Positions 4,537 to 31,130 of a stretch of 52,307 nt of DNA are shown in pieces. The position numbers and the translations under genes are program-made. Source of the stretch: a virus (lineage: Duplodnaviria > Caudoviricetes); the IMG/VR virus record IMGVR_UViG_3300034980_000365, positions 1-52,307 of that record. One strand, written 5' to 3'. Within the stretch, counting starts at the first letter, position 1, and the number at the start of each line of letters is the position of its first letter. The notes under the pieces were generated by a model, which ran no database searches, was not told the DNA's origin, and saw only the letters and a program-made list of their open reading frames with translations.

Positions 4537-5561
4537 TCCAAAAACTCTTTCATTTCTTCTTGTAGAATTTTCATAACTTTAGGATTGGCCTCTAAATATT
4601 TATACAAATTAGCCTGACCTTGGAACTTGTATTTCTTTTCGTCCCATTCTTTATCATGTTTCTCCATGAATGCACAAGTATACCATGCTCCAGATTTATC
4701 AATAACATTAAAATCATCAGCCAACATGATTAGCTCTTGTACAAAGTCAAGGCCCTTGTTGTATCGAAAGTAACTAGTGGCATCTGTTCCACTTGCTCCT
4801 AAAGAAGAGGTGGCAATCTCCCATTCTATAATCTGCCCAATCTTTCTATCACTTTCCAACCAAGGTTTACTTCTTTTAACTTGAATAACCGTGTCAGTCT
4901 GGTATTGTATCTTGATACCGCCATCTGGTAAGTTCTTTTTACCAAAGCCGCTGGTGTTGGCAATCAGGTGTGATATCATAACCACAATAGTTTTGGACCT
5001 TGGAATAACCTGTCCCATACGTCGGGTGAAATCACCCATGATCTTAGGTAGCCCAGCACGACGCTCACCATTAACCATAGTTTGTAGGTCGCGTGACGGT
5101 ATTAGACTGGAGACCGAGTCAATAATAACCACAGCACCTTCGTTTTCCGGTTTTTGAATCAGAATCTCTATGATACTTAAAAATTCTTCTGCACTTAAAA
5201 TTCTATCTTCCGGAGCATGGACAATATCCATAGCCTCAAGATTGAGACCCATGATGCCCACTAGATTATGCGTCTTCAACCGCCCTTCGCCGTCCAGATA
5301 GATCACCTTCCTGCCCTCTTTTTGAGCATTGGCGGCGATTTGAAGGACCGTAGAGGTTTTGCCGGTTTTAGGCAGACCAATAACCGTCAACCAAGACCCT
5401 TCTTGAACTCCACCATTTAAAGCAAAATCTAAAGCAGGGCAGATTGGCAGAGTTTTTAACTTCTGTTTCTCTTCAAGTATTTCACTACCTTTTGATATAC
5501 ATTTTCCCAGTTCCTTTGTAAGCTTCTTAAGACCGTCTTCTTTTTCTTTAACCTTTGCCAT
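4533..5561 (-). CDS. recA: RecA/UvsX-like recombinase
   Basis: LDFALNGG, Walker A GLPKTGKT, YLDGE, Walker B IIDSV, KSGAWY and FQG C-terminal motifs. Confidence 0.92.
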   Translation of the reverse strand: MAKVKEKEDGLKKLTKELGKCISKGSEILEEKQKLKTLPICPALDFALNGGVQEGSWLTVIGLPKTGKTSTVLQIAANAQKEGRKVIYLDGEGRLKTHNLVGIMGLNLEAMDIVHAPEDRILSAEEFLSIIEILIQKPENEGAVVIIDSVSSLIPSRDLQTMVNGERRAGLPKIMGDFTRRMGQVIPRSKTIVVMISHLIANTSGFGKKNLPDGGIKIQYQTDTVIQVKRSKPWLESDRKIGQIIEWEIATSSLGASGTDATSYFRYNKGLDFVQELIMLADDFNVIDKSGAWYTCAFMEKHDKEWDEKKYKFQGQANLYKYLEANPKVMKILQEEMKEFLE

Positions 5562-5975
5562 CTATAATTCACTCCATAGATTCTTTTTGCCGAATGGTTT
5601 TCTTGTTCCTGACGTTTCTACTTCAGTTGGTACAAACTCTTGTTCTGTCAACTTTTCATATTTTTCAATAATTGGTATTAGCTTTTTGTTTGTATACGAT
5701 AGCACATATTTTGCTTCTGGAGAATCAATAGCTTTAGATATTGCAATCATAGAATACTTTTGTAGTAATCTATTTGCGGCTATTACCTGACCTGTGTATG
5801 ATCCTTTGTATTTGGGCAGATTCCAAAAGTTTCGCGGAAGTGCGCCTTCATTACTAACATTAGCTCTTTTTTGAAATATCTTTTCACAAAGTCTATTTCC
5901 ATCATCAATTTTTGCCTCTTCGCCTTCTTTTTTAGAAAAGGCATCAAATTTACTATCGTATTTTTTTAATGGCAT
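5562..5975 (-). CDS. Hypothetical protein
   Basis: ORF abutting recA in operon. Confidence 0.6.
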   Translation of the reverse strand: MPLKKYDSKFDAFSKKEGEEAKIDDGNRLCEKIFQKRANVSNEGALPRNFWNLPKYKGSYTGQVIAANRLLQKYSMIAISKAIDSPEAKYVLSYTNKKLIPIIEKYEKLTEQEFVPTEVETSGTRKPFGKKNLWSEL

Positions 5976-6294
5976 TTTGATAATACTTACTTTTCAAACC
6001 TGCGCCTTTGGTTGCATCTCCCTGCATTGAAGCAGCCTGCGTCATGCTGACCGCACCATGTTTCTCATTCTTTATCATGAAATCATCGGTGGTCGTTGGT
6101 TTTTCTTGTTGTTCTTCTTCTTCTTCTTTTTTTTGCTCCCTTTTGATCTTCTTCTGATATCTATCAATGACGGCTTCCGGAATTCCCAACTCTATCGCTA
6201 AACTTTTTGCCTCTGTGTCTAAATGGTTATCTATATAGAATTTTTCCAATTTAGTCATTCTATATCTTGTATTCGCTGCTTTTTTCTTAGCCAT
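5953..6294 (-). CDS. Hypothetical protein, possible HTH-like N-terminus
   Basis: AKSLAIELGIPEAVIDRY resembles a helix-turn-helix; operon context. Confidence 0.5.
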   Translation of the reverse strand: MAKKKAANTRYRMTKLEKFYIDNHLDTEAKSLAIELGIPEAVIDRYQKKIKREQKKEEEEEQQEKPTTTDDFMIKNEKHGAVSMTQAASMQGDATKGAGLKSKYYQNAIKKIR

Positions 6295-11612: not shown

Positions 11613-13460
11613 CTATGCTTTAGGATTTGTAGTTAAAGTTTCTTTCTTTTCCTCCGCTTTAATTCCCAGTTTTTTCATAGCTCTGTTAGCTAAAAATCCT
11701 TTTATACCACCAGTAGCCTGACCAGCACCAACTAAAGCAAGAAGTCCAGCAATTAGTCGTTGGAAAATACTTCTTTCTTCATCATTTTCATCTTGAGTCT
11801 TTTTAAGCTCCTCAATTGCTGGTCCAAGATTTTCAAGGACACCAGATGTAATTTCATCTTTAGAAGGGACCACGATACTAGCCACATTACCCTTCAAACC
11901 GCCAAGTTGTTCTTTAACACCCGCTAGAATTTCTTCCTTGAGTGAAAAGTCTTTGTTGACGCCTTGGTCAGTGACTTTCATAGCTTCAGTAATTTTTAGA
12001 TAAGACTTTTTATGCACCCGCTCAAAAACAATTTCGACTGGAGTATCTTCTGGAATCTTATCTTTAATAGTCTTTTCAATCTTACCAGCAATTAAACCTT
12101 TTAGACCTAAACTTTGCTTTTTGATCAATACTATCACGTAAAGCGGATCGGGGTCTACACCAGCGGCTTCTGTAAATGCGGCGTATCTATTAGGTTCAGT
12201 TCTTTCTGGAACAAATATTAGGTTGGCTTTACCATCTAGAAGTTCTTCATTAGCTCTATTAAGTGGACCTCTAATAGCTTTTAAAGCAATCCTAGCGGCA
12301 ACGTCCCTTGAATAACCACTTAATACTTTTTTTACAGAAATAATTATTGAGACATTTTCCCAATCAATTTCTTCTGATGGTACTGGAGCTATTTCTTCTT
12401 CAGCACCAGGGGCTGGAGGCACATCAGATCCCTCATCTGGTGGTAGCGGTGTAAAATTTGGGTCTGGAATTGGAGTCGGAGTCGGAGGCTCATCGATAAT
12501 TTCACCACCTGGTCCGTTACCAAATAGTAGAACCCCAATACCTTTAAATACGCTTCCAATAAATCCAAATAGTGAAATTCTTCGTCCTGAAGTGTAACCT
12601 GTTTGATATTGATCAGTACCTCTTACCCAAATAGTGGGGAGCCCCGGAATATCATTTCCAGTTTTGGATCTAAACTCGTTAACTAAGTTTTTGTTTGACC
12701 AACCACTATTATCATTTTTAACCTTTATGACATTTAACCCTCTAGCCTTAAATTCTGAATCAGGTACTTCATTTGCTAGAGTTTGACAGCTAGAACACCA
12801 ATCCGCAGTAAAAATAACTACATCTCGTTTAGCTTTAGGGGTGGCTTTAGGTGGGCCTCGTGACCCATGAACTTTCTGTTTTGATTTTTCTAAAGCCGTT
12901 TTAATCAACCCCCACCCACCAAAATAAGAATTATTGCTATTGAGGGGTTCGTCTACAGCCTGTGCAATACCAACAATTTCACCAGATTCATTAATTAGTG
13001 GACCACCGGAATTACCCGGAGAAATTCGCATCTTAACCCTATTGAATGTCTCACCATCACCAGGCTGAACAGTTCCATATGTGACGGCATAATTTCCACC
13101 AGGGTATCCTATAGTATGAACAAGTGAACCAATATAAGGAGCTTTATCAGCTAACTTAAACGAAACATATGGCTTATTACCAACTGACGATATGTAATAA
13201 ACAATTGGACCATCATTTTTGTCTGTGACATAAACCAGTTCGGCTTGTTTTGAAGTTTTTCCATCTTTAGATTTTAGCAACAGAGTTTTTCCTAAGCCAG
13301 ATAAGCAATGTTTAGCGGTTACAATATAGTTCCCATCCATCATAAATCCGGTACACCCCGGCAGTTTCAAGACTCTAGAATCAGTTCTAATTACTTGTGC
13401 TGTTTGAGCTTGTGCATTAAAGCAGAATAATGCAACGATAGTAGCGAATAGTAGTCTCAT
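11613..13460 (-). CDS. Secreted trypsin-like serine protease fused to thioredoxin-like domain, Pro-rich linker and C-terminal hydrophobic segment
   Basis: Signal peptide; TAKHC, IGYP, GNSGGP; FTADWCSSC...GLPT; PPTPTPIPDP; LIAGLLALVGAG. Confidence 0.82.
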   Translation of the reverse strand: MRLLFATIVALFCFNAQAQTAQVIRTDSRVLKLPGCTGFMMDGNYIVTAKHCLSGLGKTLLLKSKDGKTSKQAELVYVTDKNDGPIVYYISSVGNKPYVSFKLADKAPYIGSLVHTIGYPGGNYAVTYGTVQPGDGETFNRVKMRISPGNSGGPLINESGEIVGIAQAVDEPLNSNNSYFGGWGLIKTALEKSKQKVHGSRGPPKATPKAKRDVVIFTADWCSSCQTLANEVPDSEFKARGLNVIKVKNDNSGWSNKNLVNEFRSKTGNDIPGLPTIWVRGTDQYQTGYTSGRRISLFGFIGSVFKGIGVLLFGNGPGGEIIDEPPTPTPIPDPNFTPLPPDEGSDVPPAPGAEEEIAPVPSEEIDWENVSIIISVKKVLSGYSRDVAARIALKAIRGPLNRANEELLDGKANLIFVPERTEPNRYAAFTEAAGVDPDPLYVIVLIKKQSLGLKGLIAGKIEKTIKDKIPEDTPVEIVFERVHKKSYLKITEAMKVTDQGVNKDFSLKEEILAGVKEQLGGLKGNVASIVVPSKDEITSGVLENLGPAIEELKKTQDENDEERSIFQRLIAGLLALVGAGQATGGIKGFLANRAMKKLGIKAEEKKETLTTNPKA

Positions 13461-25086: not shown

Positions 25087-25159
25087 TCCGGCAGGTGGGA
25101 ATCGAACCCACGACCAGCACTTTATAAGAATGCGACTCTAACCACTGAGCTACTGCCGG
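25087..25159 (-). tRNA. tRNA-Ile (anticodon UAU), CCA not encoded
   Basis: CCGGCAG/CTGCCGG acceptor stem, GCTC-AGTGGTTA-GAGT D arm, GCATT-CT TAT AA-AGTGC anticodon arm, GTGGG-TTCGATT-CCCAC T arm, discriminator A. Confidence 0.93.
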
Positions 25160-28157: not shown

Positions 28158-28817
28158 TCAACTCCTTAACTTTTCACAATATAGAATTTGCGCAATTTTC
28201 ATTTCTTCTTCTGTGTCTATATCAATATACGGACCTTTAGCAAGCCACATGGTTGAGTTAGGTGAATAAGTATAGTGATATTTACTATAGACTGCTGGAG
28301 TAGAAACCCCCATTGGGGTGACGTAGTAACACTTGGGTAAGTCCTGTGACGGCACATGCCAACTTCCCGGCCCAAAATTCATCCCCTGCATATTTTCATC
28401 TACCAAGTAATCAGCAAATTCATATACGGGGACCACTGATTCATACTGCCCTAATTTTTCTTCCGCAAAAGATAAAAAATCTTGGATGTCGTTGTACAAC
28501 CAAAAGAGTGGTGTAATACACTGCCATAAGCAAATAGGCTCATCAGGTCCAAAAGACCTAATTAAACTTTCAGATAAATCAATTACTACCTCACTCCAAT
28601 TATTTGAAGTATTATTGAGAGGTATATGATTTACGCCGTACCTTTTTATTAATTGATCAGTTTGCGTACCATCAACACAAACTAGACTTACGTGATGACC
28701 GTGTTTTAGAAAGTTTTCAACCGTTATGTCCAGTAGAGATTTACCATCAAAGAATTCCCTGACGTTCTTTTTGTGGCATCTGGAGGAATCAAATTTAAAC
28801 GGTATTATTACCTTCAT
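28158..28817 (-). CDS. CMP-nonulosonate synthetase-like (NeuA/KdsB family) cytidylyltransferase
   Basis: IIP...SSRCHKKN..FFDGKSLL, QCITPL, SQDLP, IDIDTEEE. Confidence 0.8.
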   Translation of the reverse strand: MKVIIPFKFDSSRCHKKNVREFFDGKSLLDITVENFLKHGHHVSLVCVDGTQTDQLIKRYGVNHIPLNNTSNNWSEVVIDLSESLIRSFGPDEPICLWQCITPLFWLYNDIQDFLSFAEEKLGQYESVVPVYEFADYLVDENMQGMNFGPGSWHVPSQDLPKCYYVTPMGVSTPAVYSKYHYTYSPNSTMWLAKGPYIDIDTEEEMKIAQILYCEKLRS

Positions 28818-29502
28818 CTAATTCCAGTATATTTATTTTATTTTGTTTGTGAAGTTTATTTAACCAAATTATATCTGTGTTAATCTCATGAGGTAATGCC
28901 ACTAGCTTTTTTTCTTTATTAGTATCCCAATAATGATAAAATTCTTCTTGCATACCATTTGACGGATGCCCAAATCCGGCTATATTGACTCTACCATAAA
29001 ACTTTCTGTAATAATCTACAACTAATGATCCATTTGTGGGAACCGTACTGAAGCCTCTTTTTTTCCATTTTTTCATACCATTAAACGAATCAATAAAATG
29101 AATTATGATACTATCATCAATAAATGGACTAATGTCTCTATAAAAGCGATGAAAGTCATAATTCAAACCAAGGAAAAGTTTAGACTTTGATAATACAACT
29201 GCGCCCTGACCTTCTTCGTTTCTTAATCTTTCAAAACAATCTTTTTTTACAATTGATTTATCTAAAGTTTTACGGTTTTCTATTTTCTTATCACAAATAG
29301 CACATACGCTGCTTCTTATAACCCATCCAGCAATCTGCCAATTTGCTATGAAAGAATGGGTTACTCTTGAACCTACATCTTTTTCAAATCCAGAAATCTG
29401 GGGCTGATTGATTCTTACAATTATATCGTGACTGTCTATCTTTTCCCCAAGACCTTTACCTGTGAGACTGTCAGCACTTCCCACAATACAGATCCTGCTC
29501 AT
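28795..29502 (-). CDS. GT29 sialyltransferase-like protein
   Basis: Sialylmotif L (CIVGS...LGEKIDSHDIIVRIN...FEKDVGSR), S (PTNG...IAGF), III (HYW), VS-like (HEINTD). Confidence 0.82.
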   Translation of the reverse strand: MSRICIVGSADSLTGKGLGEKIDSHDIIVRINQPQISGFEKDVGSRVTHSFIANWQIAGWVIRSSVCAICDKKIENRKTLDKSIVKKDCFERLRNEEGQGAVVLSKSKLFLGLNYDFHRFYRDISPFIDDSIIIHFIDSFNGMKKWKKRGFSTVPTNGSLVVDYYRKFYGRVNIAGFGHPSNGMQEEFYHYWDTNKEKKLVALPHEINTDIIWLNKLHKQNKINILELDEGNNTV

Positions 29503-30116: not shown

Positions 30117-30307
30117 AAATAAACCTTTGCCTCGTCGAGTGATAATTCATGTAAAGTAGGAATGCTATGCCCGTCGTCAAATTCGCGCATAGCGTCGTCT
30201 GCCATTTCCTTGTTAGTAAAAACTCCTACAATTCCATCAAAGCCAAAACTGTCGTTGATCAAATACACGACCCAAGCAATTTTCTTTTTTTTGAAATTCA
30301 TACTCAA
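30113..30307 (-). CDS. Hypothetical protein, first gene of left arm
   Basis: IVGVFTNKEMA pattern; AAGGA upstream. Confidence 0.55.
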   Translation of the reverse strand: MSMNFKKKKIAWVVYLINDSFGFDGIVGVFTNKEMADDAMREFDDGHSIPTLHELSLDEAKVYL

Positions 30308-30326
30308 TCCTTTTTCAGAATTCGTG

Positions 30327-30355
30327 TTGACAAGAGGGTCAGAGCGTGGTAGCCT
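30327..30355 (+). promoter_or_regulatory. Sigma70-like promoter
   Basis: TTGACA - 17 nt - TAGCCT with TGn extension. Confidence 0.5.
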
Positions 30356-30358
30356 ATC

Positions 30359-30431
30359 ACATTATATCGGAAGATTCAAGGGAATTTTCCAGAAATTCTG
30401 GGATTTTTCCAAAATTCTTCGGATATAATGT
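30359..30431. promoter_or_regulatory. 73-bp dyad with divergent TATAAT boxes
   Basis: Arms 30359-30374 and 30416-30431 match 15/16; inner CCAGAA-A-TTCTGG shares the same centre (30395). Confidence 0.7.
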
Positions 30432-30432
30432 A

Positions 30433-30641
30433 CTGTCGGCTAACTGGTCGGCACGAGAAGAAGTCAGTTTGCTTCTCGCTAAAATACTGGCCTGAGATAT
30501 TGTGCCACCAAAGACGCTGATAGAGGTCAGGGACCAGGCGGAATATTAAGCTAAAGAACCTGAGACGGTAATTGTACCCCTTTTTAGGGTTGGGAGTAGT
30601 CCCGGAAATTATATTGCCAAACTGACAACTACATTTTTTTT
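30433..30641 (+). ncRNA. Candidate structured, pseudoknotted ncRNA of unknown family
   Basis: Nested stems found by eye plus a 9-nt loop-to-3' pairing (30463-30471 with 30618-30626); follows TATAAT and ends in T8. Confidence 0.55.
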
Positions 30642-30776
30642 ATTTAATAGCGCTGGATATGCCTCTGACGCTAAATTTACAGTAAAGTATTGGTTTTGTA
30701 AGTCTTTGATAGATCAACACTTTAATATCTATTGCAAGTCCCGTGAGGGATTTGCTTATAAAGGGAAAATTAGTAT

Positions 30777-31130
30777 ATGTTCCCCGGAAAACCAAAGATA
30801 GTATACAAAACTTGGGGCCGCGAGATTTGGTATGCGAATAATCAGGACAAAGATTATTGCGGCAAAGTGTTAGAGATAAATTCCGGACAGAAACTCTCTA
30901 TGCACTTTCACCTTTTAAAAGATGAAATGTTTTACGTGTTAGAAGGTGATTGCGACGTTGTTACCATAGACACCGTGCAAGCTAAAGAGATATCCTGCCA
31001 CCTATCTCCCGGTGATAGCTACCATATTAAGCAGGGATTACCTTACCGGCTTATTGCTATTACGGACTGCAAAATACTAGAAGCCAGCACATTCCATAGA
31101 GATAGTGATAGCTATAGGGTTTATAGATAA
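30777..31130 (+). CDS. Cupin (sugar-phosphate isomerase-like)
   Basis: KTWGREIW, YCGKVL, SMHFH..KDE.FYVLEG, EAST.H.D.DSYR. Confidence 0.8.
   Translation: MFPGKPKIVYKTWGREIWYANNQDKDYCGKVLEINSGQKLSMHFHLLKDEMFYVLEGDCDVVTIDTVQAKEISCHLSPGDSYHIKQGLPYRLIAITDCKILEASTFHRDSDSYRVYR

Follow-up and report, generated by a model that had tools for sequence, protein, structure and literature searches.

The Strand Switch and Its Spacer

The window analyzed here is a whole IMG/VR virus record of 52,307 bases (IMGVR_UViG_3300034980_000365; Duplodnaviria, Caudoviricetes), with a CheckV completeness of 21%. Genes left of approximately 30300 lie on the minus strand and those right of 30777 on the plus strand, and the divergent spacer between them (469 bp, 30308-30776) holds the element that is the subject of this study: a structured, apparently discrete noncoding RNA of approximately 270 nt on the plus strand, placed at approximately 30362-30633 from a predicted promoter, homology, contigs from RNA libraries, and its folding. 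The original prediction, made from the sequence alone, had placed a novel RNA of approximately 200 nt (30433-30641) at this strand switch and upstream of a glycan operon. The location was borne out. The size was not: a 5' hairpin upstream had been left out, and conservation begins well before 30433.

The leftward arm encodes a primase, a DnaB-type helicase, RecA, PhoH, and a class II ribonucleotide reductase, and the gene of a family-29 glycosyltransferase lies close to the strand switch. Cultured phages are only distantly related, with identities of at most 47% for the reductase and 30% for the helicase, so the host cannot be named. On the rightward arm, the first gene downstream of the element encodes a 117-aa cupin (30777-31130, plus strand; Cupin_2, E = 1.9e-8), which in the window is followed by glycosyltransferases. 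As had been noted, the element is richer in G+C (0.47 in its 3' half) than the downstream operon (0.26-0.35).

Homologs in a Small Clade of Marine Phages

The homologs of the element comprise one further IMG/VR contig (G001, 69% identical to window 30373-30642) and ten metagenome contigs. A pattern of three short anchors hit 12 stretches of metagenome contigs, namely the ten homologs and two chance matches. A covariance model of the 3' domain gives nine of the metagenome homologs 185-193 bits (192.9 at the top) and the tenth, cut by the contig end, 145.9 bits; it is silent on the two chance stretches and on two more from a later scan of viral contigs. The ten metagenome relatives form two subgroups, approximately 90-95% alike, with the window as the outlier. 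Effectively, there are three sequence lineages, the window and the two subgroups.

Wider searches added no carriers. The intergenic region had no blastn match among 50,697 phage records, an exact 34-mer had none in viral contigs, and a scan of the genomes of 185,579 species returned none either. Three single-block patterns hit 1, 48, and 34 stretches of viral contigs, homologous only where they come from G001; the other 47 stretches of the second scan are coding sequence, and a fourth, gapped pattern gave two chance matches. Among 45 viral loci with the neighboring 69-aa gene and one with a cupin relative, nhmmer and blastn find the element in G001 only. In 17 mapped loci of the 69-aa gene, as well as in L002, this gene belongs to an array of genes that all run in one direction, with no divergent spacer, and the covariance model finds nothing convincing on the loci other than G001 (L011, 18.5 bits and E = 0.22 on the wrong strand and side; L009 and L010, E = 9.1). 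The carriers are a small clade of uncultivated marine phages, and the synteny among them is that of close relatives only.

A protein-coding reading was considered and rejected, because none of the six frames stays open in all lineages. A frame of 72-74 aa on the minus strand of the relatives is in a different frame in each subgroup and is closed in the window, and on neither strand is an open reading frame (ORF) of at least 40 aa conserved across the element, in agreement with the expectation of an RNA without ORF. The family, which the original prediction did not recognize, has no match in Rfam 15 either. At gathering scores, the only hit in the whole window is its sole tRNA gene (25087-25159, minus strand), a tRNA-Ile with anticodon TAT. 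Permissive scans of 30200-30900 and of L147:5400-5900 in the relative L147 return only 11-22 bits against cut-offs of 34-114. In the literature library searched, no paper contains the motif strings of the element or treats the topic.

Presence in Marine RNA Libraries

Mapping to metatranscriptomes, which had been proposed as a check, placed contigs on the element. Parts of a 481-nt query from L147 occur in 20 public runs: the 12 recorded as RNA contain 0.16-0.33 of the sampled words, and runs of unstated kind 0.47-0.71. Four marine metatranscriptome runs, from four studies, were mapped to a 701-nt stretch of L147. Each has a single contig there (259, 157, 245, and 260 nt, at L147:5509-5766, 5556-5711, 5513-5753, and 5513-5771, with no loose ends), and all lie inside the element, with no contig from these four runs on the flanks at 5300-5508 and 5772-6000. 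The covered segment, L147:5509-5771, corresponds to the window from approximately 30378 to just past 30633. We take this as evidence that the element is over-represented in RNA libraries.

Three of the four contigs have start points no more than 4 nt apart, 16-20 nt downstream of where transcription from the promoter P1 described below is predicted to begin; their ends differ by at most 18 nt and fall where the conserved core stops, before the terminator hairpin that many relatives carry. At a depth of 2-4.2, strand, true ends, and level are not readable from these contigs, and the ends may be assembly breaks caused by variant divergence; they offer a weak hint of the ends of the RNA.

Helices Kept in All Lineages and Helices of One

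All complementary segments listed in the original prediction are present where it had placed them. Its interval nevertheless folds poorly against shuffled controls (30430-30645, plus strand, z = -1.51 with 13 of 200 shuffles as good; minus strand, z = -1.31). The fold becomes significant only when the upstream 73 nt are included, because that interval omitted the 5' hairpin: the plus strand at 30359-30633 gives z = -5.23, with 0 of 200 shuffles as good, and 30359-30431 alone z = -7.50 at a minimum free energy (MFE) of -32.8 kcal/mol, compared with z = -2.79 for the minus strand of the whole element.

The 5' domain (30359-30431, plus strand) is a 73-nt irregular hairpin of outer, middle, and apical stems, with the same topology predicted in 5/5 sequences folded. 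Its apical stem (30388-30393/30397-30402) has six pairs and is paired in 54 of 54 alignment cells; two pairs changed on both sides, and one position passes across relatives from C-G through U-G to U-A. The middle stem GGGAA/TTTCC (30380-30384/30406-30410) is paired in 41 of 45 cells. In the outer stem, registers and sequences vary between lineages, with column-wise counts of 54/82 and 26/45. The TATAAT at 30424-30429, from which the element had been thought to follow, is indeed there and forms part of the 3' strand of this hairpin, but it is probably not the promoter, since three of the four RNA contigs cross the equivalent hexamer, having started approximately 45 nt upstream.

Next in order is Hb (30454-30478, plus strand), a 7-bp hairpin (CGAGAAG/CTTCTCG) with an 11-nt loop. 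Relatives carry CCAGATG/CGTCTGG with a 12-nt loop in the same place, so that two pairs have changed on both sides. On a hand-made, stem-anchored alignment all 63 of 63 cells are paired. The GAGAAG/CTTCTC stem first proposed is thereby confirmed, its mere 55% on the MAFFT alignment being due to misalignment of the hairpin by MAFFT. Downstream of Hb lies an invariant 20-nt block (30489-30508, plus strand), with one transition among all sequences in alignments A2 and A3. Its 3' part pairs with 30450-30454 in the window, and the relatives have no such partner. Further invariant blocks occupy 30527-30536 and 30550-30559 on the same strand, the latter as the conserved loop of a central hairpin (30527-30563) for which two registers can be drawn. 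In the first, TCAGG pairs with CCTGA (30527-30531/30559-30563), with two one-sided changes, and RNAalifold prefers it; in the second, CAGG pairs with CCTG (30535-30538/30559-30562), fully paired and with one double change from G-C to A-U. Both registers appear equally compatible with the data.

The core ends in a three-way junction (30567-30618, plus strand). The closing helix (30567-30572/30613-30618) is paired in all cells and shows two double and three one-sided changes, G-U included. Of the hairpins that it encloses, the one at 30579-30582/30586-30589, likewise paired in all cells, has one double change in addition to U-G/C-G/U-A variation, and the one at 30592-30595/30600-30603 is invariant. 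For the 3' domain as a whole, the MAFFT alignment has 184 of 184 cells paired and four pairs changed on both sides; none of 500 shuffles reaches the same, and slid controls are 21-50% paired. Three of the stems originally named for this part, CAGG/CCTG, GGTAAT/ATTGCC, and GGGA/TCCC, are paired in 100% of cells (with one double change in the first and two in the second), and ACCC/GGGT in 77.5% (MAFFT, 11 sequences). Across the kept helices we count eight compensatory double changes with G-U intermediates. G-U pairs occur in four helices and would be A-C mismatches on the opposite strand, which assigns the element to the plus strand as originally argued; the orientation of the promoter and terminator in the relatives supports the same strand. 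A structured noncoding RNA transcribed from the plus strand is thus borne out by covarying helices without a conserved reading frame.

In contrast to these helices, part of the original model does not extend to the family. The two long-range outer stems (30433-30440/30516-30523 and 30445-30454/30502-30510, within 30433-30523 on the plus strand) are part of the MFE structure of the window, where the duplex reaches -24.0 kcal/mol and only 0.3% of 300 shuffles do as well; yet they are specific to its lineage, with 31.9% and 40.7% of cells paired on the 11-sequence MAFFT alignment and duplexes in the relatives no better than shuffles. Similarly, the pseudoknot between the loop of Hb (30463-30471) and the tail (30618-30626) is strong in the window (-12.6 kcal/mol, 0.7% of shuffles as good), but only 47% of cells are paired across the alignment, and in eight relatives the loop-to-tail duplex has -0.7 to -4.2 kcal/mol, no better than shuffles. 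Among homologs, the 5' hairpin, Hb, and the junction show compensatory changes, and the pseudoknot and the two long-range stems are not kept. The latter may be real in the lineage of the window without being features of the family.

Within the junction, alignment A3 reveals three linked differences (window 30579-30612; a hairpin stem, a tetraloop, and a base beside the closing helix) that define two haplotypes. That both haplotypes of the 3' domain are found in both upstream subgroups of relatives implies that the RNA gene has recombined internally. A long-range pairing between a 5' GNRA hairpin and 30579-30589 is predicted in one of the relatives' haplotypes and was discarded, being broken in the other.

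A Probable Bidirectional Promoter at the 5' End

The sequence TTGACA at 30327-30332 (plus strand), the putative -35 of a rightward promoter P1, is invariant in the 10/10 sequences that cover it (the window and nine loci), amid otherwise variable sequence. A consensus scan calls P1 in two relatives, as TTGACA-16-GATGAT in L147 and as TTGACA-17-AAGAAT in L144, each with 10/12 matches, so that a promoter of its own, as would be expected of a stand-alone RNA, is predicted in both and its -35 is kept throughout. In the window, homology with L147 points to TAGCCT (30350-30355) as the -10, which matches in 3/6 positions only and was not listed by the promoter scan. Given this weak -10, the 5' end near 30362 is a prediction from P1.

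On the minus strand, a leftward promoter would have its -35 (TTGAAT) at 30374-30379, overlapping the sequence TCAAGGG that is kept in 10/10 covering sequences, and its -10 at TAGGCT, the reverse complement of 30352-30357, again by homology with L147. There, the scan gives TTGACT-17-GATCAT at the homologous place on the minus strand, with a -35 that is the reverse complement of TCAAGGG and a -10 that overlaps that of the rightward promoter. We read P1 and the leftward promoter as a probable bidirectional pair with a shared -10 region. In the window (30327-30379) the pair looks symmetric, with outward-facing -35s 41 nt apart and -10s overlapping on opposite strands.

Two to three direct copies of TTTTCCARAA(A)TTC surround these promoters (window 30312-30324, 30385-30399, and 30405-30419), one of them just upstream of TTGACA, and the relatives keep TTTTCCAAAA at two of the sites. 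These repeats may be binding sites of a regulator. Together with long inverted repeats in the same region, and with the overlap between the first 70 nt of the RNA and the leftward -35, they raise the alternative that the whole spacer is a control region acting as DNA, in which the blocks and inverted repeats serve the divergent operons as promoters and operators, with the transcripts as a by-product. We regard this as very unlikely: the compensatory changes run through G-U intermediates, which are mismatches in DNA, the conserved blocks reach 270 nt downstream of the promoters, and the contigs from RNA libraries lie on the element only.

The 3' End and an Inserted Predicted Terminator

The 3' end of the RNA was set where conservation and RNA contigs stop. 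A 3' tail with a T8 tract (30634-30641) occupies 30619-30641 on the plus strand, and the T8, which the original prediction took as the end of the element, is present and kept in 10/10 sequences that reach it. In the window, however, no hairpin precedes it, and it is not a canonical terminator there. Exactly between tail and T8, an 81-nt hairpin of -31.9 kcal/mol is inserted in six of the nine metagenome relatives whose sequence extends to this site; it is absent from the window, from G001, and from the three other metagenome relatives. With the U-tract behind it, this hairpin is by its predicted stability a strong intrinsic terminator, and a stand-alone RNA would be expected to have one; the window has the T8 without the hairpin. 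In L147 the 81-nt cassette lies at 5765-5845 (the window site between 30633 and 30634). It is present in some and absent in others of otherwise near-identical relatives, L136 carries a compensatory change in the inner hairpin of the cassette, and the whole looks like a gain/loss terminator module.

The coincidence of the element and the strand switch with the minimum of cumulative GC skew brings up a further alternative, namely that the divergent promoter region is a replication origin whose RNA, after processing near the A+T-rich T8, primes DNA synthesis or opens the duplex. Genes for primase, DnaB-type helicase, RecA, and ribonucleotide reductase lie on the adjoining arm, the RNA contigs stop just short of the T-rich tract, and TTTTCCARAA occurs two to three times upstream. 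Nonetheless, the switch in gene orientation would by itself be expected to give a skew minimum, neither iterons nor DnaA-type boxes were identified, and nothing links the 3' end of the RNA to DNA synthesis. Moreover, in 6/9 metagenome relatives the 81-nt hairpin is inserted at the supposed transition point and the element is retained. An origin transcript is in our judgment highly improbable.

Between the T8 and the cupin gene, alignment A2 contains a conserved spacer block (30661-30671, plus strand), possibly a promoter or another signal. The 5' untranslated region of the cupin gene includes a small hairpin with a GNRA-type loop (TCCC-GTGA-GGGA, 30739-30750); near the equivalent place in the relatives lies another hairpin, whose loop is TTCG.

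The Glycan Island Downstream

The cupin of the window matches PF01050 below the cut-off (E = 0.0012). Its orthologue in L136 passes the cut-offs of both PF01050 (30.5 bits against 23.6) and PF07385, families of the mannose-6-phosphate-isomerase and lyxose-isomerase types. An ORF of 112-119 aa, which we take to be the cupin, follows the element in 8/8 relatives with enough downstream DNA, at 135-200 nt from element to start codon. Beyond it, genes differ in number and size between relatives (window 30777-52307; L136, L142, and L144-L147); the islands of the relatives include glycosyltransferases, and those of L136 and L147 also B12-binding radical SAM proteins of approximately 500 aa. Since the element and the cupin are constant and the later genes variable, they form the constant head of a variable island. 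Inside the operon, terminator-like and promoter-like sites are no more frequent than in shuffles.

On the arm opposite the island, a protein that matches glycosyltransferase family 29 (sialyltransferase, E = 4e-23) is encoded beside a weak cytidylyltransferase match (28795-29502 and 28158-28817, respectively, both minus strand). Farther away on the same strand, 11613-13460 encodes a 615-aa protein with a trypsin-like peptidase domain and a weak thioredoxin match.

This arrangement suggests a cis-acting alternative that we consider possible: the element would be the 5' leader of the glycan island and P1 the promoter of the operon. The core of the leader would be a metabolite sensor, akin to a riboswitch, or a modifier of RNA polymerase in processive antitermination, as in HK022 put or the Bacillus EAR; transcription would pass the terminator or T8 into the 21-kb operon, and the short RNA would be terminated or processed leader. 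In the window and in 8/8 relatives with enough DNA, the element indeed lies between the only recognizable sigma-70 promoter and a cupin gene with mannose-6-phosphate-isomerase-type matches. No other sigma-70-like site is called in the spacer before that gene, in the window or in L147, and candidates read there by eye were weak, which favors read-through from P1. A strong terminator precedes the operon in 6/9 metagenome relatives, yet the island genes behind it must be expressed, and the window has no terminator hairpin, so that transcripts from P1 should enter the operon. The manA, wcaG, and epsC motifs provide precedents as described in the excerpted text of a survey of structured RNAs (PMC2864571). 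The leader view is weakened by the terminator itself, which is dispensable (absent in 3/9 metagenome relatives, G001, and the window) and whose arms have no antiterminator complementarity above chance: 28-31% of shuffles equal the strongest duplex that either arm can form with the core. Further, the start codon is 135-200 nt away from the element, beyond a spacer with its own conserved block, the RNA contigs include neither the terminator hairpin nor downstream sequence, the covariance models of manA, wcaG, and all other Rfam families fail, and synteny is a weak argument given that all carriers are close relatives. More doubtful still is the specific proposal of a riboregulator of the hypervariable island, working as a nucleotide-sugar or metabolite riboswitch or as a put-like terminator-resistance RNA with the invariant 20-nt and 10-nt blocks as its ligand- or polymerase-binding surface.

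A Proposed Stable Early RNA

In this context, we tentatively put forward that the element is a stable, independently made early RNA. The host sigma-70 RNA polymerase would start near 30362 from the promoter with the invariant TTGACA, whose -10 would overlap that of the leftward early/replication operon in a bidirectional pair. The transcript would open with the 73-nt hairpin, protecting its 5' end, and continue into the conserved core, made of Hb, invariant single-stranded blocks, the central hairpin, and the three-way junction. In most relatives transcription would then reach the strong intrinsic terminator, and in the window T8 only. The RNA would build up separately from the flanking mRNAs and to far higher levels, with a 3' end formed near the end of the conserved core, probably by processing. 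The invariant unpaired blocks would bind a conserved partner, a host or phage protein, and the role would be that of a decoy or sponge, or of the RNA part of a ribonucleoprotein particle, rather than that of a switch for the downstream genes. We prefer an independent unit on account of its own predicted promoter, its own predicted terminator in 6/9 metagenome relatives, the absence of switch pairing, the separate conserved block in the spacer, and the restriction of the RNA contigs to the element. Conservation, compensatory changes, the lack of a reading frame, presence in RNA libraries, and the absence of an Rfam family support the RNA directly; its start site, the formation of its 3' end, and its function we infer from the sequence and its context.

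Several observations weigh against this reading or the structure beneath it. With only three lineages, each compensatory change represents one or two events, and a statistic of the R-scape type is impossible. The structure is partly derived from the same sequences, one alignment being hand-anchored on stems; thermodynamic folds of the core disagree between lineages, and the covarying helix 30567-30572/30613-30618 is absent from both the MFE and the centroid structure of the window. The 321 nt of one relative fold at z = -1.82 only, and a poorly cut 216 nt of another give z = +1.51. The RNA evidence consists of the contigs of depth 2-4.2, whose ends are possibly assembly breaks and which stop before the terminator hairpin that a simply terminated RNA would include. 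The stretch between the element and the cupin gene lacks a sigma-70-like promoter, as set out above, and a search for partners or targets gave none, base-pairing matches elsewhere in the window being at chance level (E >= 0.69).

Whichever function applies, the element is a defined object of approximately 270 nt with natural variants that do or do not carry a terminator. It lies at the border between a conserved replication module and a variable glycan-synthesis island, beside a putative bidirectional early promoter. As a regulator of the island, it would tie the remodeling of phage-surface or host-envelope glycans to an RNA sensor; as a trans-acting molecule, it would join, as an abundant early phage RNA, the few noncoding RNAs that serve in host takeover or counter-defense.

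Comparison with Known RNAs

The element has no family in Rfam 15, and it may already be among the candidates of a 2023 survey, which, in the excerpts of its text considered here, predicted over ten thousand candidate RNAs from IMG/VR spacers (PMC10690425), that is, from the same data source and of the same kind of object.

With respect to position, manA and wcaG are similar. According to the excerpts of PMC2864571, both are orphan structured RNAs and riboswitch candidates, known almost exclusively from marine metagenomes and T4-like cyanophages, where they precede mannose/fructose or exopolysaccharide genes; the epsC motif is placed in 5' untranslated regions of exopolysaccharide genes. Likewise, the element belongs to a marine phage, with a cupin of the mannose-6-phosphate-isomerase type and glycosyltransferases downstream, and judged by the PF01050 matches of this cupin it occupies the manA-type position 5' of a mannose/fructose-metabolism gene. 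Neither the manA model (RF01745, 192 positions) nor the wcaG model (RF01761, 98 positions; three candidates scored) matches the window at E values up to 10. The element is also larger, at approximately 270 nt, and differs from manA and wcaG by its large 5' hairpin and, in most relatives, a terminator of its own, with no sign of a switch. To our knowledge, no ligand is known for the manA and wcaG candidates. As for riboswitches in general, the covarying helices provide a conserved, structured, aptamer-like core upstream of genes, and no expression platform was found, the terminator being present in 6/9 metagenome relatives only and absent in the window, with arm pairing at chance level.

HK022 put and the Bacillus EAR (epsC motif) are processive antitermination RNAs. 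The element resembles them in being structured, close to a promoter, and placed before terminators and a long operon, in the order P1, element, terminator (in relatives), and then an operon of at least 21 kb. It differs from both in showing no similarity of sequence or model and in being two to four times larger.

Large multi-domain RNAs that keep invariant blocks amid diverging DNA and are abundant in environmental RNA have repeatedly turned out to be ribozymes, riboswitches, or parts of ribonucleoproteins. The IMES RNAs are abundant orphan RNAs of marine metatranscriptomes with uncultivated carriers, and their families are presumably included in the Rfam library that was searched. The element parallels them as a short species in ocean RNA libraries whose carriers are uncultivated; in contrast to the IMES RNAs, its carrier is identifiable as a phage and its promoter context is clear.

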